This document shows, piece by piece, positions 15,560 to 33,096 of a DNA stretch of 64,000 nt. The DNA is from an uncultured Candidatus Rokubacteria bacterium (GTDB lineage Bacteria; Methylomirabilota; Methylomirabilia; Rokubacteriales; CSP1-6), in the NCBI GenBank assembly GCA_963762145.1, contig CAVXJS010000009.1:416001-480000 (forward strand), in the 5' to 3' direction. The position numbers and the translations under genes are program-made. Position 1 is the first letter of the stretch, and each line of letters opens with the position of its first letter. The notes beneath the pieces were generated by a model. It was given only the letters and a program-made list of their open reading frames with translations, was not told the origin of the DNA and searched no databases.

Positions 15560-16806
15560 ATGGCGGCCGGATCGCCAACCGCCGCCTCCACCGCCGACGC
15601 GGTCGTCATCGGCTCGGGCGCCTTCGGCGCCTCCACCGCCTATCACCTGGCGAAGCGCGGCTTCAAGGTCGCGCTGGTGGACCAGCACGCGCTGGGCTCG
15701 CAGACCTCGCCGCGCGCGGCCGGGCTCACGAGCAAGGCCGACACGATGCCCACTATGGCGCGGCCTGCGTCACGAGGCCTGCGAGGCCTTCGAGCGCTTC
15801 GAGACCGAGATGGGGCGCACGGTGGACTTCCACCGCTCGGGCAGCCTGCGCGCGGCGTACACCGACGCGGCGGTGGAGCGGGTGCGCATCGCGCGGCTCG
15901 AGACCGCGACGAAGCTCGGCATCGAGGCGCGAGCTCGTCGACGCCGCGGAGGCCGAGCGGCTCGCGCCCCACTTCAAGCCGGGCGCGGCGCGCGCGATCC
16001 TGCACGTGCCGAGCGACGGCTGGGTGGATCCCGGCCAAGGTCGCGATCGGCTTCGTCACCCGCGCCGGCGAGCTGGGCGCGCGGCTGCTCCCCTTCACGC
16101 CCGCGCTGCGAGCTCCTGCAGAGCGAGGGCGGCCGCGCCACCGGCGTCGTGACCCCGCGCGGGCGAGATCAGCGCGCCGGTGGTGGTGGACGCGGCCGGC
16201 GCGCTGGACCGCGCGCGTGGCCGCGGGCGCGGGCATCGCGCTGCCGCTGGTTCCCGTGCGCCATCAGCTCTTCATCACCGAGCCGATCGCCGGGCGTGGA
16301 GCCGCTGCAGCCCATCGTGCGGCTGGTCGAGGCGAGCGTGTACGTGCGCTACGAGCAGGGCGGGCTGCTCTTCGGCGGCTACGAGGACGCGCCCGCGCGT
16401 GCTCGGGCGCGAGGGCCTGCCGCCGGGCTTCCAGATCGCCGCGCTCGAGCTGGACCTGGGCGTCCTGCGCGCGCTGGTGACGAGGTGGCGGACGCACTTC
16501 CCGGCCCTGCGCGACGCGAAGATCGCGGTGCACCGGGGCGGCGCGCCCACCATGACGCCCGACGGCCGGCCCATCGTGGGCCGCGTGCCCGGCCTCGACG
16601 GCCTCTACGTGGCCTCGGGCTGCTGCGTGGGCGGGCTCAGCCTCTCCCCCGCCGCGGGCCGCGCGCTCGCCGACCTGATCGTGGACGGCAAGAGCGATCC
16701 GGATCTGGCCCCGATCTCGGTCGAGCGCTTCGCCGACGCCTCCCGCGACCCGGCCGCCCTCGAGGCGGCCTGCGTGGCGCAGTACGCGCGCCGCTACACC
16801 CACTGA
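15560..16806 (+). CDS. FAD-dependent oxidoreductase (DAO/sarcosine oxidase beta-like), several frameshifts
   Basis: VVIGSGAFGASTAYHL; TMTPDGRPIVG; GLSLSPAAG spread over three frames. Confidence 0.82.
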
Positions 16807-16825: not shown

Positions 16826-17174
16826 ATGGCCACGAGTCGACTGGAGCTATCACCGCAACGGCTGAATGACCTGTGCCAAGACGCAAGGGTTCCTTGCCAA
16901 GCACAAGGTGGCGGTGACCGAGCAGGCCGACGCGAAGAAGGCCACCATCAAGGGCGCGGCCGCGCTCGGCGTGCTCGACGGCGTGGACGAGCTGTACGTG
17001 GCGAAGGGCAAGAAGATCGAGCACGTCGATCTGCAGGCGGCGAAGCCGGACCGCGCCACGCTGCTGGCGCTCCTGCTGGGCCCGACCGGCAACCTGCGCG
17101 CGCCCACGCTGCGAAAGGGCCGCACCCTCATCGTCGGCTTCGAGGAAGCGACCTACAAGAAGGTGCTCACCTAG
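16826..17174 (+). CDS. ArsC/Spx-like selenoprotein (Sec at TGA 16863-16865)
   Basis: AAGGAG RBS before ATG 16826 (one extra base nearby); WSYHRNG-TGA-MTC; GPTGNLRAPT..LIVGF. Confidence 0.82.
16869..16909 (+). promoter_or_regulatory. Putative bacterial SECIS element
   Basis: Upper stem GCAAGG-GTT-CCTTGC with loop 23 nt after UGA; lower stem TGTGC/GCACA. Confidence 0.7.
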
Positions 17175-17671: not shown

Positions 17672-19149
17672 CTACGGCAGCAGCACCAGAGGCCCGGTGG
17701 TGCGGCGTCCCTCCAGGTCGCGGTGGGCCTCGGCGGCGGCGGCGAGCGGATAGCGGTGGCGGATGTCCAGGCGGATCACGCCAGTCGCGGAACGCATCGA
17801 AGGTCTGCCGCGCGATCTCGTCGAGCGCGGCACGCTCGGCCGTGTAGTGGAAGAGCACGGGCCGCGTCACCGTGGCCGACTTGGCCGACAGTGTCTCGGG
17901 GCCGATCGGCGGGAGCGGGCCGCTCGCCTGGCCGTAGCTCACCCAGTGGCCGCAGAGCGCGAGGGCCTCCAGGTTCTCCTCCATCGCCGCGCGGCCGAGC
18001 CCGTCGTAGATCACGTCGGCGCCGCGGCCGCCGGTAGCTCCCTTGACCGCGGCCGCGAAGCGGTAGTCGCGGCCGACCAGCGGCAGCTCGCAGCCGTTCG
18101 CGCGCGCGAGCCGCGCCTTGTCCTCGCTCGAGACGGTGCCGATCACGCGCGCGCCGAGGGCCTTCGCCCACTGGCACAGGAAGCAGACCGACGCCGCCCG
18201 CGGCCGCGTGCACCAGCACCGTCTCGCCCGCGCGCACGCGATGCGTGCGGTGGAGCAGGTACGCGGCGGTCATGCCCTTCAGCATCAGCGCGGCGGCGCG
18301 TCTCGTCGTCCACGTCGTCCGGCAGCACCACGACCTGGTCGGCCGGCATCGTGCGCGCGCTCGCGTAGGCGCCGGGCGGCGCGCACGCGTAGGCGACGCG
18401 GTCGCCGGGCAGGAGGTGCGCGACGCCGTCACCCACGTCCACCACCACCCCCGCCGCCTCCATGCCGAGCGGCGCGGGAGGCTCGATCATGCGATAGAGG
18501 CCGGCGCGCACGTAGACGTCGATGTAGTTGACGCCGACCGCGGTCTGCCGGATGCGCACCTCGCCCGGGCCGGGCGGGCGCGCGGGCAGCGGCTGATAGC
18601 GCAGCACCTCGGGGCCGCCGAAGGCGGTGGCCACCACGCCCTGCCCCGGCATCGACGCCCCCGACGCGAGCGTGGGCGAGGCCGTCCGCGGGCGATCCGG
18701 CGCACGGGCGCGACGCGCCGCAGATAGGCGCGCAGGCCCTCGAAGCCGCCTTCGTAGACCCCGGTGCCGACCATGTCGGCCAGCTCGCGCTCGCGGCCCG
18801 GCGGCGCGTCGAAGGTGGACTGCCAGTGCCAGAAGGTGCGCTCCCCGTCGGTCACCCGCTTGAGCTGGAGCGTGGCCACGTACCGGCGGAGGGGCACGCT
18901 CGCGTCGAGGATGCAGTAGGTGGAGACGTGGTCCCGGTCGGAGAGTGCCAGGAGCTGCTCGCGGATGCGGTTGCCGTCGCGCAGCGTGAACCGGCGCACG
19001 CAGCCGATCTGGTCGGACGGCTCCCCGCCCTCGATCTCCGACTCCGCCACCACCGGGTGCCACGCAGTGTGGCTGTTGAAGTCGCGGAGCACCGCCCACA
19101 CGCGCTCGATCGGCGCGTCGATCACCGCCGACCGCGTGACCCGAATCAT
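17672..19149 (-). CDS. SRPBCC (polyketide cyclase/MxaD-like) + NADPH:quinone oxidoreductase fusion, frameshifted
   Basis: IDAPIERVWAVLRDFN; GVNYIDVY; HAAAGGVG; AHRDLEGRRTTGPLVLLP across frames. Confidence 0.8.
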
Positions 19150-19211
19150 GGGGTCAGGTCTTACATTCCGACATTGTCGCGTCGCGTTGTCACAATGTAA
19201 GACCTGACCCC
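19150..19211. repeat. REP-like palindromic element, copy 2
   Basis: GGGGTCAGGTCTTACATT...AATGTAAGACCTGACCCC. Confidence 0.85.
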
Positions 19212-19214
19212 GGG

Positions 19215-19653
19215 CTAGCGGCGGAACATGGTCTTGAGGGAGTCGAAGGCGGTCTGGAAGACGCCCTGGCCGATCTGCTGGGCCAGCTCGCCCTCGCGCT
19301 CGGGCGCGCAGTCGAACTCGGCCGACCACTCCGCGAAGGTGCGGGCCGCCGTCCGTCACGGGCGTCAGCTTGAGGGTGGCGACGTAGTTCTCCACCCCCA
19401 TCGGGGACTCCAGGATCGAGTACGTGCACTGGAAGTCGTAGTCGGACAGGGTCAGGAGCTGCTCGCGGATGACGCCCCCGTCCCGGAGCCGGAAGTTCCG
19501 GACGCAGCCCACGGTGTCGGGGGCCATCCCGCCCTCGATCCGCGAATCGGCCACGAACGGGGTCCACTTGGGCAGACCGTTGAAGTCGCGGATCTGCGCC
19601 CACACCGCGTCCGCGGGCGCCTCGATCACGCTCGAGACGTAGACCTTGATCAT
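19215..19653 (-). CDS. SRPBCC family protein, one frameshift near 19340
   Basis: IEAPADAVWAQIRDFN..GCVRNFRL..IREQLL; paralogous to the next gene's N-terminus. Confidence 0.85.
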
Positions 19654-19656
19654 GCG

Positions 19657-21369
19657 CTACTCGCTGGGCTCGGAGCCGCCCTCGCCGGATCGCGGCAGCG
19701 CCGCGCTCTGGCCGCGATCCAGCAGGCCGCGGGCCGCCTTGCCGACGTCGCCCGAGTCCACGCCGATCTCGCGCAGGAGCTGATCCACCAGCGGGGCCTG
19801 CGCCCGGAAGCGCAGCGCCGAGTTCACCACGCTGTCGGCGAACCCGCCGTTGCCTTCGCGCCCGTCGCCGCCGCGGCCTCCGCCTCCACCGAGCCCGTCC
19901 ACCTGCAGGATCTTGATCCCCTCGATGCGCTCCATCGGCTTCACGGACTCGCGGATGATGCCCTCCAGCTTGTCGATCAGCCGGATGCGCATCGCGGAGA
20001 TGCGCGCCTCCGGGGACAGCAGGTTCTGCGCCTCGTTCATCAGCCGGGTTCCTTCCGCCTCCACCTCGTTGCGGATGCGCGCCGCCATCGCGCGCACGCG
20101 CTCCGAGTCGGCGTACGCCTCCGCCTCCGCCCGCACCGCCGCGCCCCGGTCGCCCGCCGCCGCCTTCTCGGCCTCCGCGCCGATGCGGATCCGCAGCGCG
20201 TCCCGCTCCGCCTCCTGCTGCGCCCCGATCAGGTCGATGCGCTTGCGCCGCTCGGCCATCTCGGTCTCGCGCGCGGTGAACACGCGCTCTTCCTCGGACA
20301 CCGCCTTGGCCCGCGCCAGGTCGGCCGCGCCCTGCGCCTCGGACTGCGCCTTCGACTGCTCGGCCACCGCGATCGCGCGATGCTGCTCGGCCAGCTCGAC
20401 CGCCTGCCGCCGCCCGATCTCGAGCTGCTGCACCTCGCTCTCCTTGAGGATCCGCTCCTCCTCCACCGCCCGCTCCGAGGAGATGCGGGCCCGGTCCACC
20501 GCCTCCCGCGCCCCGATCTGGGCGCGCTCGGCCTCCTGCTCCTTCTCCGCGCGCTGGCGGGCCACGTCGGCCCGCTGGGACGCCCGCTGCATCTCGAGCT
20601 CGCGCTCCTGGGCCAGCCGCGCGTATTCGAGCTCGCGGTCGATGTCGAGCGCCTGGCGCTCGGTCTCCAGGTTCTTGTTGCGCACCTGGATCATGGTGTC
20701 CTGCTCGATGTCGTTGCGGATCTTCTTGCGCCGCTCGATCTGCTCGGTGAGCCGGGTGAGGCCCTCCGCGTCGAAGGCGTTGGACGGGTTGAAGAACTCC
20801 ATCGCGGTCTGGTCGAGCTGGGTGAGCGACACCGCCTCCAGCTCGAGGCCGTTCTGCAGCAGGTCGGCGGCCACCACGCCCTTCACCCGCTTCACGTACT
20901 CCCCGCGCTTCTCGTGCAGCTCCTCCATGGTCATCTCGGCGGCGACGGTGCGCAGCGCGTCCACGAACTTGCCCTCCACCAGCTCCTTCAGCGTCTCCGG
21001 CTCCAGCGTGCGCTGGCCCAGGGTCTGGGCCGCCGACGCGATGGCCTCCGGGCCCGCCTGCACGCGCACGTAGAACTCGGACACGACGTCCACCCGCATG
21101 CGGTCCTTGGTGATGAGGGCCTTGTCCCGCCCCCGCGACACCTCGAGCCGCAGCGTGTTCATGTTCACCGGCACCACCTCGTGCACGATCGGCAGCACGA
21201 AGGCCCCGCCGTTCATCACCACCTTCTGGCCCCCGAGGCCGGTGCGCACGAAGGCGCGCTCCTTCGACGAGCGCAGGTACAGCCAGTTCATCAGCCACAC
21301 GATGATCGCGACGATGATCGCCACGACCACGATTCCGAGTATTGCCGCCCCGAACTGTGCTCCAGTCAT
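19657..21369 (-). CDS. Flotillin/SPFH family protein (YqiK-like)
   Basis: N-terminal TM; AFVRTGLGG; FNPSNAFDAEGLT; AEA-rich coiled coil; KPMERIEGIKILQV. Confidence 0.93.
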   Translation of the reverse strand: MTGAQFGAAILGIVVVAIIVAIIVWLMNWLYLRSSKERAFVRTGLGGQKVVMNGGAFVLPIVHEVVPVNMNTLRLEVSRGRDKALITKDRMRVDVVSEFYVRVQAGPEAIASAAQTLGQRTLEPETLKELVEGKFVDALRTVAAEMTMEELHEKRGEYVKRVKGVVAADLLQNGLELEAVSLTQLDQTAMEFFNPSNAFDAEGLTRLTEQIERRKKIRNDIEQDTMIQVRNKNLETERQALDIDRELEYARLAQERELEMQRASQRADVARQRAEKEQEAERAQIGAREAVDRARISSERAVEEERILKESEVQQLEIGRRQAVELAEQHRAIAVAEQSKAQSEAQGAADLARAKAVSEEERVFTARETEMAERRKRIDLIGAQQEAERDALRIRIGAEAEKAAAGDRGAAVRAEAEAYADSERVRAMAARIRNEVEAEGTRLMNEAQNLLSPEARISAMRIRLIDKLEGIIRESVKPMERIEGIKILQVDGLGGGGGRGGDGREGNGGFADSVVNSALRFRAQAPLVDQLLREIGVDSGDVGKAARGLLDRGQSAALPRSGEGGSEPSE

Positions 21370-21397
21370 GACAGTCTCCTAGGTTGCTGCATGTCTC

Positions 21398-22228
21398 TCA
21401 CCGCCGGATCTTCTTGAACTTGCGGGTCGTCTCGGTCAGGGCCACTTCCGTGGGCAACCGCTCCATGCTGGAGGCGCCGTAGAATCCGTGGCACTGCCGG
21501 CAATTCTTCAGTATGTAGCGCGCGTCGGCCGGCCGGGCGATCGGCCCGCCGTGGCACAGCACGATGACGTCCCGGTTGACCGACCGGGCCGCGGCCGACC
21601 AGGCATCGACGAGCGGCACGCAATCCTTGAGCCTGGGCGCGGTCTCGGCGCCGATGGCCCCGCCGGTGGTGAGGCCCAGGTGGCAGACCACGATGTCGGC
21701 GCCCGCCTTGGCCATGTCCACCGCGTTCTGCTCGGAGAACACGTAGGGCGTGGTCAGCAGGTCGCGCTCGTGAGCGGCGCGGATCATCTCGACCTCGAGG
21801 CCGTAGCCCATGCCGGTCTCCTCGAGCTGGGCGCGGATCGTCCCGTCGAAGAGGCCCACCGTCGGGAAGTTCTGCACCCCCGAGAAGCCGAGCTCGATCA
21901 GCCGGCGCAGGAAGTCGTCGGTGATCATGAACGGGTCGGTGCCGTTCACCCCGGCCAGCACCGGCGTCCGCTTCACCACCGGCAGCACCTCGCGGGCCAT
22001 GTCGAGCACGATGTCGTTGGCGTTGCCGTAGGCCATGAGCCCAGCGAGCGAGCCACGGCCCGCCATCCGGTAGCGGCCCGAGTTGTAGATCACGATGAGG
22101 TCGATCCCGCCCGCCTCCTCGCACTTGGCCGAGAGCCCGGTGCCCGCGCCCCCGCCGATGATCGGCTCGCCGCGCCGGATCATGCTCCGGAACTTCTTGA
22201 GGCAGTCCTGACGGGAGATGCGGGGCAT
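21398..22228 (-). CDS. PEP-hydrolase-like TIM-barrel protein (Tm-1 C-terminal homolog)
   Basis: [17 protein letters not shown]; [16 protein letters not shown]; CHGGPI; [12 protein letters not shown]. Confidence 0.93.
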
Positions 22229-22236
22229 GGGCGCGC

Positions 22237-24528
22237 TCACCTCACCTGAGGCCGGGCCAGGGCGGGCTCGCCGACGATCTCGTCGAACGCGGCCACCAGG
22301 GCGTCGCAGAAGGCCTGGTCGTTGATGTTGTGCGGCAGCCGGATCAGCTTCCGGCGGGAGCCGGCCCGGAATCCCGTCGCGATCGCGTCGAACAGCGCCC
22401 GGTCCGCGGCGGGATCCCAGAATGCCTTGCCCGCCGCGTCGATCAGGGAGACGCCGCCCTCGGGGATCAGGAACCGCACGGGGCCTTCCATCCGGTTGAG
22501 CTTCTCGACGATGAAGCGGCCGATCCGGGCGCATTCCTCGGCGGTGGTGCGCATGAGCGTGACGTTGGGATTGTGCCGGTACAGGTTGCGCTCGCGGAAC
22601 TGGGCCGGCACCGTCTCCATGGCCCAGAAGTTCACCATGTCGAGCGCGCCGCACGAGCCCACGTAGGGCAGCCGCGTGCGGATGATCGAGTCCAGTCGCG
22701 CGGGCCCCGCGGAGAGGACGCCGCCCACGATCTCGTCCGCGATCTCGGTGGTGGTGACGTCGATCACCCCGGTCAGCAGGCCCGAGTCCACCAGCTTCTC
22801 CATGGATTGCCCGCCGGTGCCGGTGGCGTGGAAGACGAGGCAGTCGTACCGCTCCTCGAGGGCCTTGGTGACCGCCTGCACGCACGGCGTGGTGACCCCG
22901 AACTGGGTCAGCCCGATCGCGGGCTTGGCGCTCGACTCGCTGGCGAGCGCCCGCCCGTATCCGATCATGCCCGCGAGCGCGTGGGCCGCGTTGGCCAGCA
23001 CGCGCTCCGAGATGCGGTTGATGCCGGCCACGTCGGTGACCGAGTACATCATGCAGATGTCGGAGGGGCCGACGTACGGCTTCACGTCGCCGGAGGCCAC
23101 CGTCGAGACCATGACCTTGGGCAGGCCGATCGGGAGACCACGCATGGCGAGGGTGGCCAGCGCGGTGCCGCCGGAGCCGCCCGCGGAGATGAGGCCGCCC
23201 AGATCGCGCCGGCCGGCCACGAATCGCTCGAAGGCCACCGCCATCTCGCTGACCGCGGAGCCACGGTCGCCGGTGAAGACCGCGCGCTCGCCCTTCGGGT
23301 GATGCCGCGCGACCTCTCGAGGATGAATCATCGCGGGCGACGGCTTGCCGGAGGTCGCCAGATCCACCGTGACCGTCCGCAGGCCGAGCTTGTCCAGGCA
23401 GTTCCGCAGGAAGAACAGCTCGCGGCTCTTGGTGTCGAAGGTGCCCGCGATGTAGGCGGCCCGTCCGACGGTGGCGGCCACCGGGAACTCGACGACCCGC
23501 CCGGCCGGGCGACTGTCGGCCAGGGCCGCGGCCGCCCCGTCGAGCGACGGCACCGGCTCGCCCGGATCCGCGCGGCCGTCGATCAGGCGGTCGCGCGGGG
23601 CGCTCCGAGGGTCCGCGGCGTTCCACCGGGTGAACCCGCGCACCGCGCGCTCCGCGGGCGGCTCCGCCTCGGGGCCGGGCGCCGTCTCCACGTCGTCGCT
23701 CGACCGGCGCACCGTGTAGACGGTGACGGTGTCCGGCGCGTCTCCGGCCGCGGGCGCCGCGTCGGCCTCCGGCTCCTCGTCCACGCCCACCTTGACGCCG
23801 AGCAGGCGCTGCTGCAGATCGCGGTCGGCGGCCAGCTCGGCCGACGGCATCGAGCGCGCGATGCGGCCGTTGACCATCACGTCCACCGTGTCGGCCACGT
23901 CGATCGCCACCCCGAGGTTCTGCTCGATCAGCAGCACCGAGATCGAGCCGTCGGCGGCCAGCCGCTTCAGCATCTCGGCCACCTGCTGCACGATCACCGG
24001 CGCCAGGCCCTCGGTCGGCTCGTCCATCACGAGGAGGATCGGGTTGAACAGGAGCGCCCGCGCGATGGCGAGCATCTGCTGCTCGCCGCCGGACAGCTCG
24101 GCGCCCCCGTTGCCCTTCCGCTCCGCCAGCCGTGGGAAAGTCTGGTACACGCGGGCCGCCGTCCAGGGGCCGCTCGACCGGTCGCGGGACGCCAGGCGCA
24201 GGTGCTCGTCCACCGTCAGCGACGGCCACACGCGCCGGCCCTGCGGGACGTATCCGACGCCCCGGTCGGTGATCGCGTTGGGCGGCAGACCGAGGATCTC
24301 CTCGCCGTCCAGCCGCACGCTGCCCGCGGCCGGAACGAGCCCCGTGATCGCGTTGCACAGCGTGGTCTTGCCCATGCCGTTCTTGCCCACCACCGCGGTC
24401 ACCCCGTGGTCCAGGCGGAGGGAAACCTCCTGGAGCGCGTGCGCGCGGCCGTAGTACACGTCGAGCTTCTCGACGACCAGGATCGGCCCCGACGAGCGGG
24501 CCCGGCGCGCGCGGGAGAACCAGCGCAT
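22237..24528 (-). CDS. LivF-type ABC ATPase fused to Tm-1-like (UPF0261) domain
   Basis: [25 protein letters not shown]; then [36 protein letters not shown] in one frame. Confidence 0.92.
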
Positions 24529-25319
24529 CAGTGGCGCGCGCCTCCGATGTAGATGGCCTGCACGTCGGCGTCGCCCTCGATCTGCGCGGGGGTGCCGTGC
24601 TTCAGCACGTGGCCGTCGTGCATCACGGTGACCTGCTCCACCACCCGCAACGCGACGTCCAGATCGTGCTCGATGATGATGAAGCTCATGTGGGCGGGGA
24701 GCGCGGTGAGCAGCGCGACCAGATCGCGCCGCTCGGCCGGGGAAAGCCCGGCGGCCGGCTCGTCGAACAGGATGAAGCGGGGCGCGCCTGCCAGCGCCAT
24801 GCCGATCTCGAGCTGGCGCTGCTGGCCGTGCGAGAGCGATGACACCGGCTGGTCGGCCACCGCCTCGAGCCGGACGCGGTGGAGCAGCTCCTCGGTGGCC
24901 AGGCGCGAGGGGTGCGCGGGGCGGGGCCGCAGGAAGCCGTAGCGCCCGCGCGCCACGCCGCGCACGGCCAGGAACAGATTGTCCCGCACCGTGAGATCGC
25001 GGAACAGGAGCGAGGACTGGTACGTGCGGCGCAGGCCCATGCGGATCCGCTCGTGGGGCGGCATCGCGGTCACGTCCTCGCCGAAGAAGCGAACCCGCCC
25101 CGCGGTGGGCGGAAAGTCACCCGTGATGGTGTTGAACAGGGTGGTCTTGCCGGCGCCGTTGGCGCCGATCAGGGCCCGGCGCTCCCCCGCCGCGACCGAG
25201 AACGAGACGTCCTCGATCGCGCGGAGGGCGCCGAAAGTTCGGGTGACGCCCTCGAGCACGAGGGCGTCACCCGTGTTGGTGGGCTGTCGCTGTGCCGTTC
25301 CCGGCTGAACCGGTGGCAT
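24528..25319 (-). CDS. LivG-type ABC ATPase
   Basis: GANGAGKT; LSHGQQRQ; FDEPAAGL. Confidence 0.92.
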
Positions 25320-25329
25320 CCTGCTTAGA

Positions 25330-25361
25330 ATTGGGGGGAGCGGCGGCGCTCCTCCCCCAAT
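25330..25361. repeat. Intergenic G/C-tract hairpin (possible third REP-like family)
   Basis: ATTGGGGGGAGCG-GCGG-CGCTCCTCCCCCAAT; single copy in window. Confidence 0.4.
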
Positions 25362-25441
25362 CCCCCCCACCGCATTTTTCAGCTGCGTTCATGTGTCGAT
25401 TGTTCCGCGTGTTCTTCCTGGTTCTCCTGCCGTTGTCTTCC

Positions 25442-26701
25442 CTACGGGCAGTTGGGGACGTCGCGGGAGCCGAGGCCGACCTTGTCGAACTCGGCCTTGG
25501 ACATGCCGAGACGCTGGTTGACGCCGGGCACCACCTTGACGACCTTGTTGTAGAACTCGCCGTCGGAGGCCTTGGCGACCTCGGTGACGAACGTGGTGCC
25601 GATGGCCTGGCGATTCTCGTCCAGGGTCACCTCGCCGGTCGGGGTCTTGAGCTTCAGATTCTTGAGCGCCTCGCGGTACTTCGCCTGGCCGCCCGAGAGA
25701 TCGCCCTTCACCGCGTCCAGCCCGTCGAGCGCCGCCTTCATGTTGATGTAGTACACGTAGGCGAAGAGCGAGGGGCTCGGGAAGCCGTCCTTGTAGCTCT
25801 CCTTGTAGTCGGCGACGAACTTCTTCCACTCGGCCCCCTCGTACCGGTCGGCGATGGGGCCGGCCGACGGCGTGCCGAGCAGGGACTCGCGCCGCTTGCC
25901 CTTGAAGTTCAGCACCGTCTGATCCACCGTGATCGAGCCGCCCACCATCGGCTTGCTGCCGCCCGCCTGCTCGTACTGGGTGAGGAAGTTCACCGCGTCC
26001 GCGCCGCCCAGGACCACCAGCAGCGCGTCCACGTCACCGGGGAGCTTCGCGATGACGGAGGAGTAGTCCTTGCCGCCGAGCGGAACCCACGCCTTGTGGG
26101 TGACCTTCCCCCCCGCCTTGCAGTACTCGGTCATGAAACCCTGCACCTGGGAGTACGGGAACGCGTAATCCTCCGCGATGAGCGCCATCTTCTTGTAGTT
26201 CTTGGTCTTGTAGGCGTAGTCGCCGAGGCCCACCATCCACTGGGCGCCCTCGGTGTTGAAGCGGAAGAAGTTGGGCGACGGGTCCTGCAGCGTGGTGGCC
26301 TGGGCGCCCGAGGAGCCGTTGATGAACGTGATGCCGGGCTGCGTCTTGGAGTAGTTCTTGACCGCGATGCCCTCGGAGCCGGAGAGCGGGCCGACCATGA
26401 TGTCGACCTTGTCCTGCTCCACCAGCTTCCGGGTGGCGTTGACCGCCACGTCCGGCTTGGCGTCCGACGAGGCCTTGATGATCTCGATCTTCCGGCCCGC
26501 CACCGTGCCGGCGCGCTCCTTCACCGCGAGCTCGGCCCCGCGCATGCCGTCCTGCCCACCCGCCGCGAACGGGCCTTCGAGCGTGGCGAGCAGGCCGATC
26601 TTGACTGCCGGCGCCTGGGCGGTCGCGCCCCCGGCGACGACGCCGGCCAGCATCGCCGCGCCCGCCGCCGTCCACAGTAGCCGCCTCGTGAGTGACTTCA
26701 T
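25442..26701 (-). CDS. Liv-type ABC substrate-binding protein
   Basis: GAGGAGG RBS; signal with RR; VKIGLLATLEGPF; VGPLSGSEG. Confidence 0.92.
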   Translation of the reverse strand: MKSLTRRLLWTAAGAAMLAGVVAGGATAQAPAVKIGLLATLEGPFAAGGQDGMRGAELAVKERAGTVAGRKIEIIKASSDAKPDVAVNATRKLVEQDKVDIMVGPLSGSEGIAVKNYSKTQPGITFINGSSGAQATTLQDPSPNFFRFNTEGAQWMVGLGDYAYKTKNYKKMALIAEDYAFPYSQVQGFMTEYCKAGGKVTHKAWVPLGGKDYSSVIAKLPGDVDALLVVLGGADAVNFLTQYEQAGGSKPMVGGSITVDQTVLNFKGKRRESLLGTPSAGPIADRYEGAEWKKFVADYKESYKDGFPSPSLFAYVYYINMKAALDGLDAVKGDLSGGQAKYREALKNLKLKTPTGEVTLDENRQAIGTTFVTEVAKASDGEFYNKVVKVVPGVNQRLGMSKAEFDKVGLGSRDVPNCP

Positions 26702-27879
26702 TGTCCCCTCCTCCTCTGGGTTAGTGCGGCCCCGGGGCCGCGGTGGAACTGCGCCTGCAGCGATCGCCGACCCTGCGCCCACCAGCCGAGCAGGCCGTCG
26801 GTCGAGAACAGCACGATGACGAGGAACACAGCACCGATCAGCAGGTTGAAGCGCTCCCGGCCGACCAGATCGACCGCGAAGTTCTGCAGCAGCACGAACA
26901 CGATGGCGCCGATGAACGGGCCGATCGGATGGCGCATCCCGCCCAGCACCGCGATGATCAATATGTTGATCAGCCAGCTCGTGCCCACCGAGCCGGGCGA
27001 GACCAGGCCGTTGTACCAGACCATCAGGATGCCGCCCACCGCCGCGATGAGTCCGGCCACCGCGTAGGCGGCCACCCGGTGCGCGGTGACGTTGAAGCCC
27101 AGCGCGCTCATCCGCCGCGGGTTGTCGCGGATGCCCTGCAGCGCGACGCCGAATGGCGCGCGCAGCAGGTAGGACACGAAGAAGTAGCCCGCCAGCGACC
27201 AGAAGAGCGCCAGGTAGTAGAAGGTGGTCGGGGCGCGCAGCTCCACGCCTCCCACCGCGGGCGTCATCACGCTCTGGAAGCCCTGGAAGCCGTTGAACAG
27301 CGAGTAGTTCTGCTGGGCGAGGTAGTAGAAGGCCACCCCGATCGCCAGCGTGATCATGATCGTGTAGATGCCCTCGGTGCGCACCGAGAACCAGCCGATG
27401 AGCGTCCCGCACACCGTCGCGATCACGAGCGCGAGGGCGACCGCGAGCCCCCAGGGCCAGCGCAGGCTGATGTCGGTGCCGCTCGTGGCGAAGATCGCGT
27501 ACATGTATCCCGCGATGCCCGCGACCGTCATCTGAGCCAGCGAGACCATGCCGCCGTAGCCGGCCAGGAACGTCAGCGAGAGCGCGATGAGCCCCAGAGC
27601 GAGCGCCTGCGCACCGATCTGATAGGTGAAGAACGGCGTGGCCACCCACGGATAGATCAGCACCGCCAGCAGCACCAGCACGTGCCGCGCCCCCACCCGC
27701 CGTCCCACCCACCGCGCCCATCCCGCCGCGGACACTTCCCCCTCTCCCCTCAGGGGAGAGGGCCGGGGTGAGGGGCGGGTCGAATCGCGCACGGCCCCGC
27801 GGCGGCCCGCGACTCCGGCGTTCCACGCGTACCGCCCCGCCCCCGCGTTCATCGCCTTCCGCCAGTCGGCCGCGCTCAC
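26698..27879 (-). CDS. LivM-type ABC permease
   Basis: GYGGMVSLAQ; GIYTIMITLA; GIRDNPRRM; VLGG. Confidence 0.9.
   Translation of the reverse strand: MSAADWRKAMNAGAGRYAWNAGVAGRRGAVRDSTRPSPRPSPLRGEGEVSAAGWARWVGRRVGARHVLVLLAVLIYPWVATPFFTYQIGAQALALGLIALSLTFLAGYGGMVSLAQMTVAGIAGYMYAIFATSGTDISLRWPWGLAVALALVIATVCGTLIGWFSVRTEGIYTIMITLAIGVAFYYLAQQNYSLFNGFQGFQSVMTPAVGGVELRAPTTFYYLALFWSLAGYFFVSYLLRAPFGVALQGIRDNPRRMSALGFNVTAHRVAAYAVAGLIAAVGGILMVWYNGLVSPGSVGTSWLINILIIAVLGGMRHPIGPFIGAIVFVLLQNFAVDLVGRERFNLLIGAVFLVIVLFSTDGLLGWWAQGRRSLQAQFHRGPGAALTQRRRGQ
27736..27775 (-). repeat. CCCTCACC..CCCTCTCCCCTGAGGGGAGAGGG palindromic repeat inside the livM-like 5' region
   Basis: Near-identical to 42496-42533. Confidence 0.8.
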
Positions 27880-28787
27880 GTCCGCCTCCCGAGAATGCCC
27901 TGCGGCCGGAACGCGAGGACGAGCGCCATGATGACGAAGGTGAACACCACGCTGTAGGTGGGCGCGTAGGCGAGCCCGAACTGCTCCGCGACCCCGATGA
28001 GGATCGCCCCGATCGCCGCGCCGACGACGCTCCCCATGCCGCCCACGATGACCACCACGAGCGAGGCGAGCTGGTAGCGCGTGTCCTCACCCGGCGCGAT
28101 CGACAGCGCGGTGCCGCCGACCACCCCCGCGAAGCCGGCCAGGCCCGCGCCGATCGCGAAGGTGACCGCGAACACGAACTGCACGTTGACGCCGGCGGCG
28201 GCCAGCATCGCGCGGTCGTCCACCCCGGCCCGGATCATCATGCCCACCCGGGTCCGATTGAGGAACCACCAGAGGAGGATGCCGATCGCGGCCGACATCG
28301 CGAGCAGCACCAGCCGGTAGGTCGGGTAGACCTGCACGATCGGCAGCACGGTGCGGCCGAAGATCGCGGGAGGCGGATCGAACTGGTAGATCTCGCCCCC
28401 GAACATCCAGAGCAGGACGTCCGCCATCATGATGGCGATGCCGATGGTCACCAGGGTCTGGCGCAGGTCCTCGCCGTGCATGAAGCGGAACACCGCCACC
28501 TGGAGGATCAGGCCGAGCAGGGCCGCGCTCGCGAAGCCGGCCGCCACCGCCAACAGCCAGGAGCCGGTCCGGTCGCCCACCACGTAGCCCACGTAGGCGC
28601 CCAGCAGGTAGAGCGAGCCGTGGGCGAGGTTGACGTTGCGCATGAGGCCGAAGACGAGCGTGAAGCCGCTCGCAACGAGGAAGTAGAGCGCGGCGAGCGT
28701 CAGCCCGTTCATGCCGGTGGTCAGGAAGAGCTTGGGATTGTCCGCGAGCCCCCACACCACGAACGCGGCGGTGGGCACGCCGATCAC
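27876..28787 (-). CDS. LivH-type ABC permease (possible CTG start at 28820)
   Basis: SGFTLVFGLMRNVNLAHG; VIVGGMGS. Confidence 0.9.
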   Translation of the reverse strand: MIGVPTAAFVVWGLADNPKLFLTTGMNGLTLAALYFLVASGFTLVFGLMRNVNLAHGSLYLLGAYVGYVVGDRTGSWLLAVAAGFASAALLGLILQVAVFRFMHGEDLRQTLVTIGIAIMMADVLLWMFGGEIYQFDPPPAIFGRTVLPIVQVYPTYRLVLLAMSAAIGILLWWFLNRTRVGMMIRAGVDDRAMLAAAGVNVQFVFAVTFAIGAGLAGFAGVVGGTALSIAPGEDTRYQLASLVVVIVGGMGSVVGAAIGAILIGVAEQFGLAYAPTYSVVFTFVIMALVLAFRPQGILGRRT

Positions 28788-28832
28788 CAGACTCCAGAAC
28801 CACCGCCAGAAGGGGGACAGGGGCCGCTTTCC

Positions 28833-29618
28833 TTAGATGCGCTGCGCGTAGAAGCGCCGCAGCAGGTCGTCACACTCGTCGGGCTTCTCGACCATGGTCC
28901 AGTGCCCGCAGCGGGGCAGCACCATCACCCGCGCGCCGCGGATCCGCTCGCCGATCTGGCGCACCGCCTGCGCGGGCGCGATCGCGTCCTCGTCGCCGGT
29001 GACCAGCAGCGTGGGGCACTCGATCCCGCCCACCTCCACCGCCTGGGCTCCCGCGAGCGCCTCGCAGGAGCGGGCGTAGCCGTCCGGGCACTGGCGCATC
29101 ACCAGCTCCCGCACCGCCGCCACCGCTACCGGGCGGCGTGTCCGCGTCTCGGTCGAGATCGCCCCCTGCACCAGCCCGTCGGCGATGGCCTGCATGCCCG
29201 CCTCCCCTTCCACGCGCGCCTTCTCTCCCCGCGCCCGGATACCCGGCCGCGCGGTGTCGGGCGGGCACACCAGCGGGCCGAAGAGGGCCAAGCTCCGCAC
29301 CAGCCGCGGCGCCGCGATCGCCATGTGAAAAGCGATGATCGTCCCGAGGGAATGGGCGGCCACGTGCACGCGCTCCAGGCCCAGCGCCGCGCACACGCGC
29401 TGCATCGCCTGGACGAACCGCTCGATCGAGAGCGGCCCCTCCACCCGGTGCGAGCGGCCCGAGCCTGGCAGGTCCGGCCGGATCGTCCGATGGCGGCTCA
29501 TCGCGGGCAGGACCGGGGTCCACACGTTGGAGGTGCCGCCGAGGCCGTGGATCATGAGCACCGCCTCGCCGCTCCCGTCGGTCTCGACGGCCATGCGCTC
29601 GACGAACTGCGTGCTCAC
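28833..29618 (-). CDS. Alpha/beta hydrolase (enol-lactonase-like)
   Basis: IHGLGG; AHSLG nucleophile; GDED; CGHW. Confidence 0.9.
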   Translation of the reverse strand: MSTQFVERMAVETDGSGEAVLMIHGLGGTSNVWTPVLPAMSRHRTIRPDLPGSGRSHRVEGPLSIERFVQAMQRVCAALGLERVHVAAHSLGTIIAFHMAIAAPRLVRSLALFGPLVCPPDTARPGIRARGEKARVEGEAGMQAIADGLVQGAISTETRTRRPVAVAAVRELVMRQCPDGYARSCEALAGAQAVEVGGIECPTLLVTGDEDAIAPAQAVRQIGERIRGARVMVLPRCGHWTMVEKPDECDDLLRRFYAQRI

Positions 29619-29749
29619 TTGGCGACGGGGGCGCACCCGAGGATGTGCTCCTCGGTGGGCATGCGCTGGCGGGCCCCGCGCGCGATCCGCGAGATGCGGT
29701 TGCCGGTCCCGTCGAAGATCCGGACGTTCGTGAACAGCACGCTGGTCAT
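29615..29749 (-). pseudogene. 44-aa relic of a metal-dependent amidohydrolase
   Basis: AGGAGG RBS; MTSVLFTNVRIFDGTG-NRISRI-QRMPTEEHIL resemble separated amidohydrolase segments; no HxH. Confidence 0.65.
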
Positions 29750-29821
29750 GCCGCCCTCCTGGCCGGGAGCGGCGCCGCCGCGGATCGAGGGCTGCGCGGC
29801 GGTGGGCAGCTCCGGTTTCCA

Positions 29822-29879
29822 TGAGACACCTGTCTCACGCGAGTGGGCCATACTAGAAAATGCCGTGCCCTCTTGTCAA
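29822..29879 (-). promoter_or_regulatory. Sigma70 promoter TTGACA-N18-TAGTAT with downstream operator TGAGACA-N2-TGTCTCA
   Basis: -35 at 29879-29874, -10 at 29855-29850, perfect inverted repeat at 29822-29837; divergent TetR gene. Confidence 0.75.
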
Positions 29880-29909
29880 CCGGCATTCCCGCGCTCACAG
29901 TAGCGCACC

Positions 29910-30596
29910 GTGAAGACGCCTCCCCCGCCCGAGACCGGCCCTTCCGGCCCGCAGGCGCGTACCTACCGGCTGCTCCTCGGCCACGCGATGACCCTGGTGC
30001 GGCGCGGGCGCATCCCCTCGGTGCCCGAGCTCGCGGTGAAGGCACGCGTCTCCCGCGCCACCGCGTACCGCTACTTCCCCAGCCGCAGCAAGCTCGTGAG
30101 CGCGGTGGTCGCGGAGAGCCTGGCCCCGGTGCGGCGCTTCGAGCCCAGCGCGGCCGACGGGCTGGGCCGCGTGCGCGAGCTGTTCGACAAGACGTTCCCG
30201 CTGTTCAAGCGGTTCGAGCCGCACATGCGCGCGGCGCTCCAGCTCTCCCTGGAGCACGAGTCGCTCGAGCGGATGGGGCTGCTGGAGGAGGAGCCCTATC
30301 GGCGCGGGCACCGGCAGTACATGCTGCACCGGGCCGCCGCGCCGCTCGCAGCCACGCTGGGGCCCGAGGCGTACGACCGCCTGATCAAGGCCCTGTCGCT
30401 GGTCTACGGGATCGAGTCGTACGTGGTGCTGCGGGATATCTGGGGCGCGAGCTACCGCGAGGTGGAAGCGGTGGCGCGCTTCATGCTGGAGGCCCTGATC
30501 GAGTCGGCGCTGCGCCAGGCGCCGGCACCGCTCGCCGCGCGAGGCGGCAACCCTGCCAGAGCCAGACCCCCAGCGCGACCACGATCGCGGGGATGA
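29910..30596 (+). CDS. TetR family regulator
   Basis: SVPELAVKARVSRATAYRYFPS HTH. Confidence 0.9.
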   Translation: MKTPPPPETGPSGPQARTYRLLLGHAMTLVRRGRIPSVPELAVKARVSRATAYRYFPSRSKLVSAVVAESLAPVRRFEPSAADGLGRVRELFDKTFPLFKRFEPHMRAALQLSLEHESLERMGLLEEEPYRRGHRQYMLHRAAAPLAATLGPEAYDRLIKALSLVYGIESYVVLRDIWGASYREVEAVARFMLEALIESALRQAPAPLAARGGNPARARPPARPRSRG

Positions 30597-33096
30597 AACT
30601 CCAGTACGGCGCGGGCCGGCGGGGGTTGGGCAGCTTGATCTCCTCGATCGTGTAGCCCGCGCTCACCCCGAGCTTGCGGGCGGGGCTGCCGAACCGCACG
30701 TTCGTGATCCGGATCTTCTCGCCCACCGCCAGGGTCACCCCGGAGCTGCGGATCCGCTCGCGCCCGTCCGAGCCCGGACCCATCGGCAGCGCGACCACCT
30801 TGCGCACCTCGTCCCCCTCGATGGACTCGCCCTTCACGCTCACGATGAGCAGCTCGTCCGGCGGCAGCCGGTCCGCGATCCGGTAGATGTCCTGGGCGGG
30901 CGCGCCCACGTACTTCGGATGGAGCTGGTCGATCAGCCAGTCCGGCCGGAAGAACAGGAAGCTGGCGATCAGGAGCAGCGCGATCTCGATCACGTGGCAG
31001 CGGGTGCGGAACCACGCCATCGTCGCGGCCGCGAAGAGCAGCGAGGCCACCATCCCGGTCACCGCGACCAGGATCACCTCCCACCACGTGGACACACCGA
31101 TGAACAGGATCTGTGGGTTGAAGATGAACACGAAGGGCAGGACCGCGGTGCGGAAGCTGTACCAGGTGGCCTGCCAGCCGGTGGCGTTCGGGTCCTCGCC
31201 CGAGATGGCGGCCGCCGCGTAGGAGGCGAGGCCCACCGGCGGCGTCACGTCCGCCATGATGCCGAAGTAGAAGACGAAGAGGTGCACCGCGATGAGCGGG
31301 ATGACCAGCTCGGCCTGTGCTCCGAGCTCGACGATGACCGGGGCCATGATGGTGGCCACCAGGATGTAGTTGGCGGTCGTGGGGACGCCGGCTCCGATCA
31401 GCAGGCAGATCAGGCCGGTGAAGATCAGCATGACCAGCACGTTGCCGCCCGAGACGTACTCCACGAACTCGGTCATCATGAGGCCCATGCCGGTCAGGGT
31501 CATGACGCCCACGATCAGCCCGGCGCTGGCGGTCGCGACCCCGATGCCGATCATGTTGCGCGCGCCCAGCACGAGCCCGCGCCAGAGATCGCCCACGCCG
31601 CGCCAGGCCGCGCCGGCGAGCGCGCCCTGACGCCGGAACAGGGCGAGCAGCGGAGGCTGCACCACCACCATCGCCATCACGGTCACGGTGGCCCAGAAGG
31701 CGGAGAGACCCGGGGAGAGCTCCTCGACCATCAGGCACCAGAGCAGCACGATCAGCGGGATCGTGAAGTGAAGCCCGGACCGCACGGTGGGCCACGGCTC
31801 GGGCAGCCGGATGATCGGCGCGGTGGGATCGTCGGGCGGGAGATCGGGGTAGCGCGAGGAGTAGGCGAGGAGACCGAGATAGGCGCCCCCGGCCAGCACG
31901 GTCAGGACCCAGCCCGCCGCCGCGCCGAACGCGTACTGCACCCCGGTGACGACGTAGTAGAGGATGGCGCACACCGCCAGGGTGCCCAGGCCGCCCAGCG
32001 CGGCCTCGATCAGCTGGACCCGCCGGCCGCGGTGGGCAGAGCGCGGGATCGGCTGGAGATCGTACTTGAGCGCCTCCAGGTGCACGATGTAGAAGAGCGC
32101 CACGTACGAGATGATGGCGGGCAGCGCGGCGTGCTTGACGATGTCGCTGTACGGGATGCCCACGTACTCGACCATGAGGAACGCGGCCGCCCCCATCACC
32201 GGCGGCATGATCTGGCCGTTGATCGAGGAGGTCGCCTCGATGGCCCCGGCCTTCACGCCGGAATAGCCGGTGCGCTTCATCATCGGGATCGTGAAGATCC
32301 CGCCCGAGACCACGTTGGACACCGAGGAGCCGGACACCAGCCCGTTGAGCGCGGAGGACACCACCGCCACCTTGGCCGGGCCGCCCCGCAGGTGGCCGAG
32401 GAAGGCCACCGAGATCTGCATCATGTAGTTGCCCGCCCCCGCGATGTCGAGCAGGGTGCCGAAGAGCACGAACAGGAAGATGAACTGCACCGACACGCCG
32501 AGCGCGACTCCGTACACGCCCTCGGTGGTCAGCCACATGTGCGAGACCAGGCGCTGCACGCTGGCGCCCTTGTGCTGGATCACCTCCGGCATGTAGGGAC
32601 CGGAGAAGACGTAGAGGAGGAAGACGCCGGTGGTGATCAGCATCCCCATGCCCATGGCCCGGCGGGTCGCCTCGAGCATGATCGCGATCCCGGCGATGCC
32701 CACCGCGAGGTCGAGCTGCGTCGGCGTGCCCGGCCGCTGGGCCAGCTCGGCGTAGAACAGATACAGATACGAGCCGCAGAAGGCCCCGACCACCGCCAGC
32801 GCCCAGTCGGCCGCCGGCACCCGCCGGCGCGACGACGAGCGGAAGGCGGGAAACACCAGGAAGGCGAGGAAGATCGCGATCGCCAGGTGGATGGCGCGCG
32901 CCTCGGTGTCGTTGAACAGGCCGACGCGCAGGATGAACGGCAGCGGCGAGGCGTACCAGACCTGGAACAGTGACCAGCCGCCCGCGATCAGGGAAAGGAA
33001 GAGGCCGACCCGGCCGCCGGGCTCCCGGCCACCGAGGTCGGCCTCCTTGACGAGCTGCTCGAGTTGCTCGCTGCTGAACGGCTTCTGCTGCTCCAC
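30481..33096 (-). CDS. TRAP transporter fused 4TM/12TM permease
   Basis: GGPAKVAV; GSSVSNVV; GQIMPPVMGAAAF; DVTPPVGLA. Confidence 0.93.
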   Translation of the reverse strand: MEQQKPFSSEQLEQLVKEADLGGREPGGRVGLFLSLIAGGWSLFQVWYASPLPFILRVGLFNDTEARAIHLAIAIFLAFLVFPAFRSSSRRRVPAADWALAVVGAFCGSYLYLFYAELAQRPGTPTQLDLAVGIAGIAIMLEATRRAMGMGMLITTGVFLLYVFSGPYMPEVIQHKGASVQRLVSHMWLTTEGVYGVALGVSVQFIFLFVLFGTLLDIAGAGNYMMQISVAFLGHLRGGPAKVAVVSSALNGLVSGSSVSNVVSGGIFTIPMMKRTGYSGVKAGAIEATSSINGQIMPPVMGAAAFLMVEYVGIPYSDIVKHAALPAIISYVALFYIVHLEALKYDLQPIPRSAHRGRRVQLIEAALGGLGTLAVCAILYYVVTGVQYAFGAAAGWVLTVLAGGAYLGLLAYSSRYPDLPPDDPTAPIIRLPEPWPTVRSGLHFTIPLIVLLWCLMVEELSPGLSAFWATVTVMAMVVVQPPLLALFRRQGALAGAAWRGVGDLWRGLVLGARNMIGIGVATASAGLIVGVMTLTGMGLMMTEFVEYVSGGNVLVMLIFTGLICLLIGAGVPTTANYILVATIMAPVIVELGAQAELVIPLIAVHLFVFYFGIMADVTPPVGLASYAAAAISGEDPNATGWQATWYSFRTAVLPFVFIFNPQILFIGVSTWWEVILVAVTGMVASLLFAAATMAWFRTRCHVIEIALLLIASFLFFRPDWLIDQLHPKYVGAPAQDIYRIADRLPPDELLIVSVKGESIEGDEVRKVVALPMGPGSDGRERIRSSGVTLAVGEKIRITNVRFGSPARKLGVSAGYTIEEIKLPNPRRPAPYWSFIPAIVVALGVWLWQGCRLARRAVPAPGAAPTRSGPPA

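Follow-up and report, generated by a model that had tools for sequence, protein, structure and literature searches.

The stretch analyzed here, hereafter the window, comprises 64,000 nucleotides of contig CAVXJS010000009.1 of an uncultured Candidatus Rokubacteria bacterium. Between positions 17,672 and 30,596 it carries a TetR-family regulator gene and, divergent from it, a cluster encoding an ABC importer, a UPF0261 domain with a TIM-barrel partner, a flotillin and SRPBCC proteins (all coordinates are window positions unless a locus is named). With moderate confidence, and from comparison with its relatives, we read this cluster as a cut-down version of an operon that is conserved, has spread horizontally, is repressed by TetR and would serve to import a small organic molecule and process it at the expense of ATP; the imported molecule probably carries amide and/or ester (lactone) bonds. 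The cluster would be a catabolic importer operon built around a protein of the UPF0261 kinase family, and it is widespread and not described in the papers that we found. The most unusual fact about it is that flotillin goes strictly with clusters whose importer has the kinase-like domain tethered to it. Taken with the hydrolases and the reductase, this linkage suggests a membrane-organized uptake-and-conversion unit. The initial annotation of this DNA, made from the letters alone, had envisaged membrane-scaffolded uptake and catabolism, which is a possible reading of such an arrangement.

Conservation of the cluster

We scanned one genome per species for the TIM barrel, obtained 179 confirmed relatives, kept the best 80 loci (designated by L numbers) and searched these by tblastn with all cluster proteins. 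UPF0261 adjoins the TIM barrel in 73 of the 77 loci that have room for it. A flotillin gene was found in 41 of the 69 informative loci, and it directly follows the TIM barrel in every one of them (41/41). Flotillin loci with enough flanking sequence also carry the first SRPBCC gene (34/34), the second SRPBCC gene (34/34) and the quinone oxidoreductase (QOR; 33/34), together with LivH, LivG and LivF (33/33 each), LivM (31/33), the binding protein (32/33), each of two amidohydrolases (28/28) and an alpha/beta hydrolase (24/28). The initial annotation had staked its operon on flotillin and SRPBCC genes being syntenic in other genomes, and this is what these counts revealed; the genes thus behave as a single unit. 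Among the informative loci without flotillin, on the other hand, the Liv importer was found in 0 of 28 and an SRPBCC-like gene in 9 of 28. In the informative loci examined, flotillin occurs only alongside a Liv-type importer whose LivF is fused to UPF0261.

The LivF::UPF0261 junction is in frame and free of stops in 38 of the 40 loci that allowed a check (both parts above 50% identity; exceptions L028 and L041), and the junction between the second SRPBCC protein and QOR is in frame in 32 of 34 (exceptions L025 and L041). Furthermore, metagenomes often contain the LivF::UPF0261 fusion: every one of the best 120 database clusters at 90% identity has it, and they are labelled 'uncharacterized protein (UPF0261 family)/ABC-type branched-chain amino acid transport ATPase' or 'ABC transporter permease'. 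Three NCBI records (P0059, P0066 and P0087) likewise call LivF::UPF0261 an 'ABC transporter permease'; Pfam shows no membrane domain in it, and the misannotation hides the fusion. Nine unfused UPF0261 proteins from flotillin-less loci were scanned and have no ABC domain. Such unfused UPF0261/TIM pairs accompany CUT1 sugar-type importers, dehydrogenases and SRPBCC proteins (SRPBCC in L071, L072 and L079). A single origin of the fusion was considered and found to be unsupported, as 4 label changes are required on a quick unrooted tree, where well-supported branches force at least 2.

The position of the hydrolase module varies: Rokubacteria, Burkholderiales and some other loci have it 5' of the importer, whereas loci of the Alphaproteobacteria/Arenicellales type have it 3' of QOR, which leaves their flotillin, SRPBCC and QOR genes flanked on both sides by genes of the cluster. 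By record label, the 41 flotillin loci come from Rokubacteria/Methylomirabilota (10), Betaproteobacteria (12), Alphaproteobacteria (11), Gammaproteobacteria (5) and others (3); the last three are metagenome-assembled genomes (MAGs), one of Verrucomicrobiia, one of Flavobacteriaceae and one unclassified, which may be mis-binned. Six flotillin loci come from cultured strains, namely Pelagibius litoralis DSM 21314, Denitrobaculum tricleocarpae R148, Hwanghaeella grinnelliae Gri0909, Hwanghaeella sp. 1Z406, Rhodovibrionaceae bacterium A322 and Ramlibacter sp. PS3R-8, which makes genetics and ligand screens possible.

A candidate promoter and operator are conserved across phyla. The TetR-family gene (29910-30596, plus strand; Pfam TetR_N 26.4 bits, cutoff 24) is divergent from the operon. 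A promoter scan revealed TTGACA-18-TAGTAT (29879-29850, minus strand) as the sole sigma-70-like site between 17000 and 30700 (13.7 kb; mean of 0.4 in shuffled sequences), and an operator-like palindrome read from the sequence, TGAGAC-N4-GTCTCA (29822-29837), lies just downstream of its -10 element. A comparable pair of the TTGACA...TAGT type is present in the intergenic regions of relatives. The palindrome recurs in nine loci besides the window. Its half-sites are kept, with a variable central 4 nt, in L013 and L035 of Rokubacteria, in L037, L038, L040, L041 and L043 of Burkholderiales type, and in L049, which holds only TetR, UPF0261 and the TIM barrel. TetR homologues at the same divergent position share 82-97% identity in Rokubacteria and 56-61% in Burkholderiales, and TetR adjoins six flotillin-type loci of the Rokubacteria/Burkholderiales arrangement (L035, L037, L038, L040, L041 and L043) as well as L013. 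Conservation of this candidate operator across phyla is as expected of a real TetR operator. With one sigma-70-like site in 13.7 kb and a palindrome conserved in relatives, the single promoter and operator of the initial annotation hold up. A terminator scan found none inside the cluster on the operon strand and one weak plus-strand site in the binding-protein gene (shuffles mean 3.3), while Rfam at gathering thresholds gave two tRNAs outside the cluster and no riboswitch or leader RNA.

Encoded proteins and a possible pathway

Genes were called by third-position GC frame analysis and Pfam. All eleven features listed by the initial annotation were found in their places, all on the minus strand from 29.8 kb to 17.7 kb; the last two genes, SRPBCC1 and SRPBCC::QOR, are present and are frameshifted in the assembly, a qualification that the earlier list lacked. 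Neighboring genes of the operon overlap by 4 nt or 1 nt or are separated by gaps of less than about 125 nt. The importer has the HAAT layout in one operon, with two BPD_transp_2 permeases (LivH/UrtB-like, 27876-28787, E 2e-37; LivM/UrtC-like, 26698-27879, E 6.4e-35), a periplasmic Peripla_BP_6 binding protein (25442-26701, E 7.9e-58) and two ABC ATPases, of which one is LivG/UrtD-like (24528-25319; Pfam ABC_tran, E 3e-30) and the other is the LivF/UrtE-like part of the fusion. In livH, the first start codon lies about 8 codons past the point where homology to the relatives begins. The importer resembles Liv/Urt (HAAT) systems in this five-component layout and in having Urt models as its top NCBIfam matches. 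It differs from them in the 500-residue C-terminal extension of one ATPase and in scores below the equivalog cutoffs (bits/cutoff: UrtB 171.7/250.3, UrtC 109.1/296.2, UrtA 82.6/492.75, UrtD 217.7/304.1, UrtE 209.4/285.8). The top PDB matches of the binding protein are 4ZPJ (6.4e-43), then 4EY3/4EYG/4EYK and 4EVQ; proteins of the 4EY3/4EVQ type are presumably the benzoate-derivative binders of Rhodopseudomonas.

The LivF/UrtE-like ATPase::UPF0261 fusion (22237-24528; Pfam ABC_tran, PF06792 and PF23189) is a stop-free frame of 763 aa, in which the ATPase (aa 1 to ~247) is followed by a linker of ~105 residues rich in Ala, Pro, Asp and Glu (~248-355) and by the UPF0261 domain (~356-763). As read from the translation, the LivF moiety keeps the Walker A, signature and Walker B motifs. 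The UPF0261 domain scores 201.8 bits with PF06792 and 304.2 bits with PF23189 (cutoffs 27), and 607.8 bits with NCBIfam NF002673 (cutoff 520). In the PDB it matches tomato Tm-1 (3WRY, E 3.9e-94) and MarK (9MPY, E 6.5e-55). The former match, along with a TIM partner belonging to PF09370, agrees with the correspondence to the two halves of Tm-1 drawn in the initial annotation. Tm-1 (3WRY/3WRX) is the closest solved relative of the domain, and the same TIM-barrel family adjoins it in both cases. According to PMC5028733, plant Tm-1 joins UPF0261 to the TIM-barrel family in one polypeptide, whereas here each half has its own gene, and a transporter ATPase is attached to the UPF0261 half within an operon for an importer and hydrolases.

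MarK (Saro_1862 of Novosphingobium aromaticivorans) is described in PMC12624787 (JBC 2025) as an ATP-dependent kinase of acetovanillone and other phenols, and its authors present it there as the first catalytic function for the UPF0261 family. The same paper depicts MarK as a free-standing homodimer without a TIM partner, whose operon holds the acvCDEF carboxylase/phosphatase genes. The initial annotation knew of no established function for the bacterial pair, a view that is partly outdated, as MarK gives UPF0261 a function, though in a protein that acts without a TIM partner. MarK residues D14, K16, H219 and H304 align with D25, K27, H227 and H312, which are invariant in 66 sequences, and T15 aligns with T26, which is at least 90% conserved in the same 66 (residues mapped by hand). 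The window domain and MarK share the two-domain UPF0261 fold family, the D-T-K motif of the ATP site, the equivalents of His219 and His304 and a setting in an operon that is catabolic for MarK and probably so here. They differ in that the window domain is joined to an ABC ATPase, has a PF09370 barrel as its partner and shows changed contact residues. Assignment as a MarK orthologue (acetovanillone kinase) was rejected on account of these contact residues and because the cluster has no carboxylase/phosphatase genes.

The PEP_hydrolase-like TIM barrel (21398-22228; E 6.7e-131) scores 435.8 bits with PF09370 (cutoff 33.8) over profile positions 3-267 of 267, and its mean column identity is 82% over 68 sequences. 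It matches PDB 2P10 (Mll9387 of Mesorhizobium loti; E 1.9e-126) over its full length, a structure listed just as 'Mll9387 protein' with no reaction indicated, and our literature search found no paper naming Mll9387. Its fold class acts on enol/keto-acid intermediates. Complex prediction for UPF0261 (66-row alignment) and the TIM barrel (67-68 sequences) scored 0.00 twice, without controls, and speaks neither for nor against binding.

PF09370 was also found at the N-terminus of regulators. Proteins in which it is followed by sigma-54 AAA+ and HTH_8 domains lie beside unfused pairs (L060:5889-7853, L072:5988-7853, L075:5933-7867 and L079:5770-7857), and PF09370 plus HTH_8 regulators with a degenerate AAA+ part lie upstream of 10 flotillin loci of the Alphaproteobacteria/Arenicellales arrangement; examples of regulators with a TIM domain are also seen at L057:743-2473 and L082:93-1505. 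These proteins are a putative, uncharacterized class of sensors in which the paralogous TIM domain would act as the sensor. A third PF09370-like open reading frame (ORF) of 233-270 aa, matching only the middle of the profile (E 1e-13 to 1e-19), was seen in four loci (L060:7812-8510, L072:7873-8661, L075:7877-8611 and L079:7878-8687, minus strand in each), where it separates the TIM-domain activator from UPF0261 on the opposite strand; it may be real or an antisense artefact.

The alpha/beta hydrolase (28833-29636; Pfam Abhydrolase_1, E 2.5e-28) is PcaD-like, its top NCBIfam matches being 3-oxoadipate enol-lactonase models, below their cutoffs, with a PDB match to 2XUA (E 6.8e-23). The amidohydrolases of the relatives resemble the L-Arg carboxypeptidase Cc2672 (3MTW, 4.7e-47) and, weakly, ochratoxinase (4C5Y, 7.2e-19); enzymes of the Cc2672/ochratoxinase type cleave the acyl group off a C-terminal amino acid. 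A gene for an FAH-family hydrolase is found in 17 flotillin loci, from Alpha- and Gammaproteobacteria and a few others.

The flotillin (19657-21369) has an N-terminal hydrophobic segment and scores above the Pfam cutoffs for Band_7 (64.5 bits, E 1.7e-17) and Flot (127 bits, E 5.7e-37), with a PDB match to flotillin-1 (9BQ2, E 5.1e-7). The hydrophobic segment and the SPFH/Band_7 and Flot domains are shared with FloT/YuaG and YqiK. Bacterial flotillins of these types are usually encoded beside NfeD, whereas the Pfam scan of cluster proteins revealed no NfeD domain. The window flotillin further differs in its score of 51.1 bits against the FloT equivalog, far below the cutoff of 700, and in being embedded in an importer/enzyme operon, which to our knowledge is not a usual flotillin context.

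The first SRPBCC protein (19215-19653; 145 aa in relatives) belongs to Polyketide_cyc2. For the SRPBCC proteins, this family scores 162.5 bits over two domains in the window reading and 101.4 and 84.5 bits in intact relatives. The SRPBCC::QOR fusion (17673-19149; Pfam assignment via an intact relative) combines Polyketide_cyc2, ADH_N and ADH_zinc_N in one frame of 490 aa in the relatives, and these domains lie in different frames in the window. Against zeta-crystallin-type NADPH:quinone oxidoreductase, the relatives' QOR scores 281.8 bits with PRK10754, an NCBIfam subfamily model (cutoff 348).

These features suggest a pathway that would begin with TetR on TGAGAC-N4-GTCTCA over the transcription start, from which a ligand would release it. 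The binding protein and the LivHM-like permeases would import the compound, with LivG and LivF supplying power. UPF0261, on its flexible ~105-residue linker from LivF, would phosphorylate a hydroxyl of the imported compound or of a hydrolysis product in the manner of MarK, and the PF09370 TIM barrel would bind or convert the phosphorylated intermediate. Oligomers of flotillin may keep the transporter-enzyme assembly in a membrane patch, the SRPBCC proteins would carry a hydrophobic intermediate, and the fused quinone-reductase-type enzyme would reduce it. In full-length units, two carboxypeptidase-like amidohydrolases, the PcaD-like hydrolase and sometimes an FAH-family hydrolase would cleave the substrate or its products. 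Everything from the kinase step onward (the phosphorylated compound, the action of the TIM barrel and binding by flotillin) we infer.

The reduced copy in the window

Relatives of the same genus and the same order have a fuller gene order, which runs TetR, amidohydrolase A (428 aa), hydrolase, amidohydrolase B (430-437 aa), importer, fusion, TIM barrel, flotillin, SRPBCC and SRPBCC::QOR (490 aa, single frame). The ancestral unit is one of 13 genes that includes two amidohydrolases, and the window copy is trimmed of both. The amidohydrolase relic recognized by the initial annotation is a 44-codon ORF (29615-29749) that starts like the relatives' amidohydrolases and matches, by blastn, patches of the first ~285 nt of their 428-aa Amidohydro_1 gene, the remainder of which is gone. 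Amidohydrolase B is cleanly deleted: in blastn comparisons with L013, L021 and L035, the subject jumps by ~1470 nt between the hydrolase stop and livH (junction of the ~1.47-kb deletion at 28811-28833), and at this site the relatives encode an Amidohydro_1 protein of 430-437 aa. A tblastn search of the window for amidohydrolase gave no match at E 1e-5. Relocation of the module was considered and rejected, since the genome's best paralogue, on contig C21 (66% identity), sits among unrelated genes. Two Burkholderiales loci, L038 and L041, have, just past the operator and ahead of the alpha/beta hydrolase, a short ORF whose N-terminus is amidohydrolase-like in the same way, and also keep both full amidohydrolase genes downstream; the 'relic' in the window may consequently be a recurrent or retained leader and not a one-off scar.

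Comparison with three relatives in mutual agreement (L018, L019 and L020) revealed insertions private to the window, namely +1 near 19348 in SRPBCC1, and +2 near 18712 and +1 near 18298, 18184 and 17785 in SRPBCC::QOR. By tblastn, SRPBCC1 is split over two frames and the pieces of SRPBCC::QOR lie in four. We counted lineage-private substitutions on the window branch, reading the window codons in the frame of the relatives. The ratio of nonsynonymous to synonymous changes was 4:31 for SRPBCC::QOR and 2:10 for SRPBCC1, compared to 3:18 for the intact TIM barrel and 9:22 for the intact flotillin. The broken genes are thus as constrained as intact ones, indicating that the breaks are very recent or, more likely, assembly errors; long drift that collected five indels would give mostly nonsynonymous changes, which disfavors old decay. 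Furthermore, the adjacent, unrelated gene for a DAO-family FAD oxidoreductase (15560-16803, plus strand) is spread across several frames, and its alignment with the homologue in L018 shows 19 gap openings in 1642 nt. Together with the five insertions, these indels make the region from 15.5 to 19.4 kb look like an assembly stretch of poor consensus, in which the small gene at 16866-17174, between the DAO-like gene and the cluster, is intact. On these comparisons, assembly error explains the frameshifts of SRPBCC1 and SRPBCC::QOR more probably than decay does.

The two SRPBCC genes are separated in the window by a hairpin (19150-19213) that lies outside the conserved unit. It results from a window-specific insertion of 55 nt with perfect inverted arms of 18 nt, placed exactly between the SRPBCC1 stop and the SRPBCC::QOR start, and is missing from the three relatives. 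A blastn-short search with a 75-nt stretch holding it gave 53 rows genome-wide, nearly all of one arm and often as inverted pairs; we call it REP-like because such one-arm matches recur across the contigs of the genome. A larger insert, of ~4 kb, lies between SRPBCC1 and SRPBCC::QOR in L013 and L015 and carries genes for a protein of the alpha-amylase family, an esterase and a LigD_N phosphoesterase. These two loci place the cluster twice in one relative genome (G038:C3, a 24-kb contig, and G038:C5, a 1.78-Mb contig) and may be a strain duplicate in the bin. The long-contig copy, L015, has several frame breaks, so that another MAG of the group shows such clustered breaks.

Alternative readings, significance and surroundings

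Several observations weigh against the favored reading of the cluster. Similarity to the window TIM barrel decided which 80 loci were kept, with close kin included, so that our counts describe one clade of clusters and not independent events, and the fused forms are not one clade on the quick unrooted tree. None of the five transporter components reaches the equivalog cutoffs for Liv or Urt, the Liv models scoring lower than Urt. Residues through which MarK contacts acetovanillone are replaced (H348 by Ile, F283 by Met, I285 by Asn and T196 by Val; alignment read by hand), and phenol specificity therefore cannot be transferred from MarK. As MarK is active without a TIM partner, the role given here to the TIM barrel is a guess, and since PF09370 is also the N-terminal domain of transcription activators, the barrel may only bind a ligand. 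The window copy, which lacks both amidohydrolases and has SRPBCC and QOR broken as assembled, may not work like the full unit.

The state of the window copy raises the question of whether the cluster in this genome is a decaying, non-functional remnant with SRPBCC and SRPBCC::QOR as true pseudogenes. The reduction of the first amidohydrolase to a 44-codon relic and the clean deletion of the second favor this, as do the five private insertions in the last two genes, the REP-like element between them and the 19 gap openings in 1642 nt of the neighboring DAO-like gene versus L018. We nevertheless consider decay unlikely, as frames stay unbroken for ~10 kb, through all eight genes from hydrolase to flotillin, the frameshifted genes (4:31 and 2:10) are as purifying as the TIM barrel (3:18) and flotillin (9:22), and clustered frame breaks are similarly seen in L015; the genome also has a 66%-identical amidohydrolase at another site, although its context there is unrelated. 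To a similarly small degree, the unit might be non-catabolic, the UPF0261/TIM pair sensing or modifying a signal or cofactor at the membrane on a flotillin platform, with the importer supplying the ligand. PF09370 is the N-terminal module of sigma-54-type activators beside unfused pairs (L060, L072, L075 and L079), and PF09370 plus HTH_8 regulators lie upstream of 10 flotillin-type loci. Moreover, flotillins organize signaling proteins in Bacillus, and Tm-1 acts in plants by binding and not by catalysis. A tight, ATP-bridged binding by Tm-1 is also described in PMC12624787. However, three to four hydrolases and a reductase accompany the unit, the catalytic-type residues of the lone characterized UPF0261 enzyme are invariant or nearly so, and an unfused pair is found within sugar-type catabolic clusters (L071). 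Regulators that borrow an enzyme-like domain as a sensor are, besides, usual for catabolic operons.

Each of the families of flotillin, the SRPBCC proteins and the quinone reductase is known alone from unrelated contexts, and their tie to the importer is drawn from gene context; they might then form an independent module for membrane or quinone stress that merely adjoins the importer and Tm-1-like genes. We regard this as improbable, because flotillin follows the TIM barrel in 41 of 41 loci and is found in none of the 28 loci that lack the Liv importer, SRPBCC genes also stand beside unfused pairs without flotillin (9 of 28 loci; L071, L072 and L079), and the gaps between the genes in the window measure 3-28 nt. 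Furthermore, loci of the Alphaproteobacteria/Arenicellales type place the hydrolase genes downstream of QOR, which makes the supposed module internal. Least probable by far is an anti-phage or other defence system built on a bacterial homologue of Tm-1, an idea that draws on the inhibition of a plant virus replicase by Tm-1 described in PMC5028733 and PMC12624787. With PADLOC, 9 of the 11 proteins drew no match, among them those of UPF0261, the TIM barrel, flotillin, SRPBCC, QOR, TetR and the hydrolase, and the matches to the two ABC ATPases are of the generic P-loop type only, which sides with the initial annotation in holding defence to be less likely. The context of an importer and hydrolases under a TetR repressor also argues against defence, and no mobile-element or defence-island genes were found among the flanks scanned.

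We continue to favor a TetR-repressed operon for uptake and conversion. A bolder form of it, which we find conceivable but rather doubtful, is that the importer ATPase bears its own substrate kinase: the solute would be phosphorylated, trapped and activated on leaving the translocation path, the TIM barrel and SRPBCC proteins would dock there, and flotillin would corral the metabolon. If true, this would be a vectorial uptake machine of a new kind, with the logic of the phosphotransferase system (PTS) built from ABC parts; it would also make this flotillin the first to have a defined client linked to it genetically, and would show what plant Tm-1 did ancestrally as a biochemical function.

A literature search found no paper on the cluster or on the bacterial UPF0261/TIM pair; Datasets S2/S3 of PMC12624787 may list some of the genomes as MarK homologues, and a bacterial 'Tm-1-like' mention in PMC12733950 is a mere gene label in a table of single-nucleotide polymorphisms. 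The UPF0261/TIM pair spans bacteria to plants (Tm-1), and the sole published catalytic function that we found is that of MarK, from 2025 and without a TIM partner. The cluster gives the pair a defined setting, with a covalently attached transporter, a conserved candidate operator and repressor, and hydrolases that limit the chemistry, and in this way offers a route to the function of the pair in bacteria. Strict synteny of a bacterial flotillin with specific client genes is rare and makes the scaffold hypothesis for bacterial flotillins directly testable. The value of the window itself is limited, as its copy is trimmed and its apparent pseudogenes are probably assembly errors.

The window has a G+C content of 70% and lies on contig 9 of a 6.26-Mb genome of 25 contigs, whose closest relatives are MAGs labelled Candidatus Rokubacteria or Methylomirabilota. 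A search of sequencing runs returned 22 runs, of which 20 contain at least part of the stretch; six soil-metagenome runs from 2 studies contain at least half of the words sampled from it, and we draw no claim on habitat from these figures. Beyond TetR, the window encodes a fused TRAP-type permease of 871 aa (DctM plus DUF3394; 30484-33096, minus strand) and an NMT1_3 (TAXI-type) binding protein (33114-34085, minus strand), which together form a second, unrelated uptake system.

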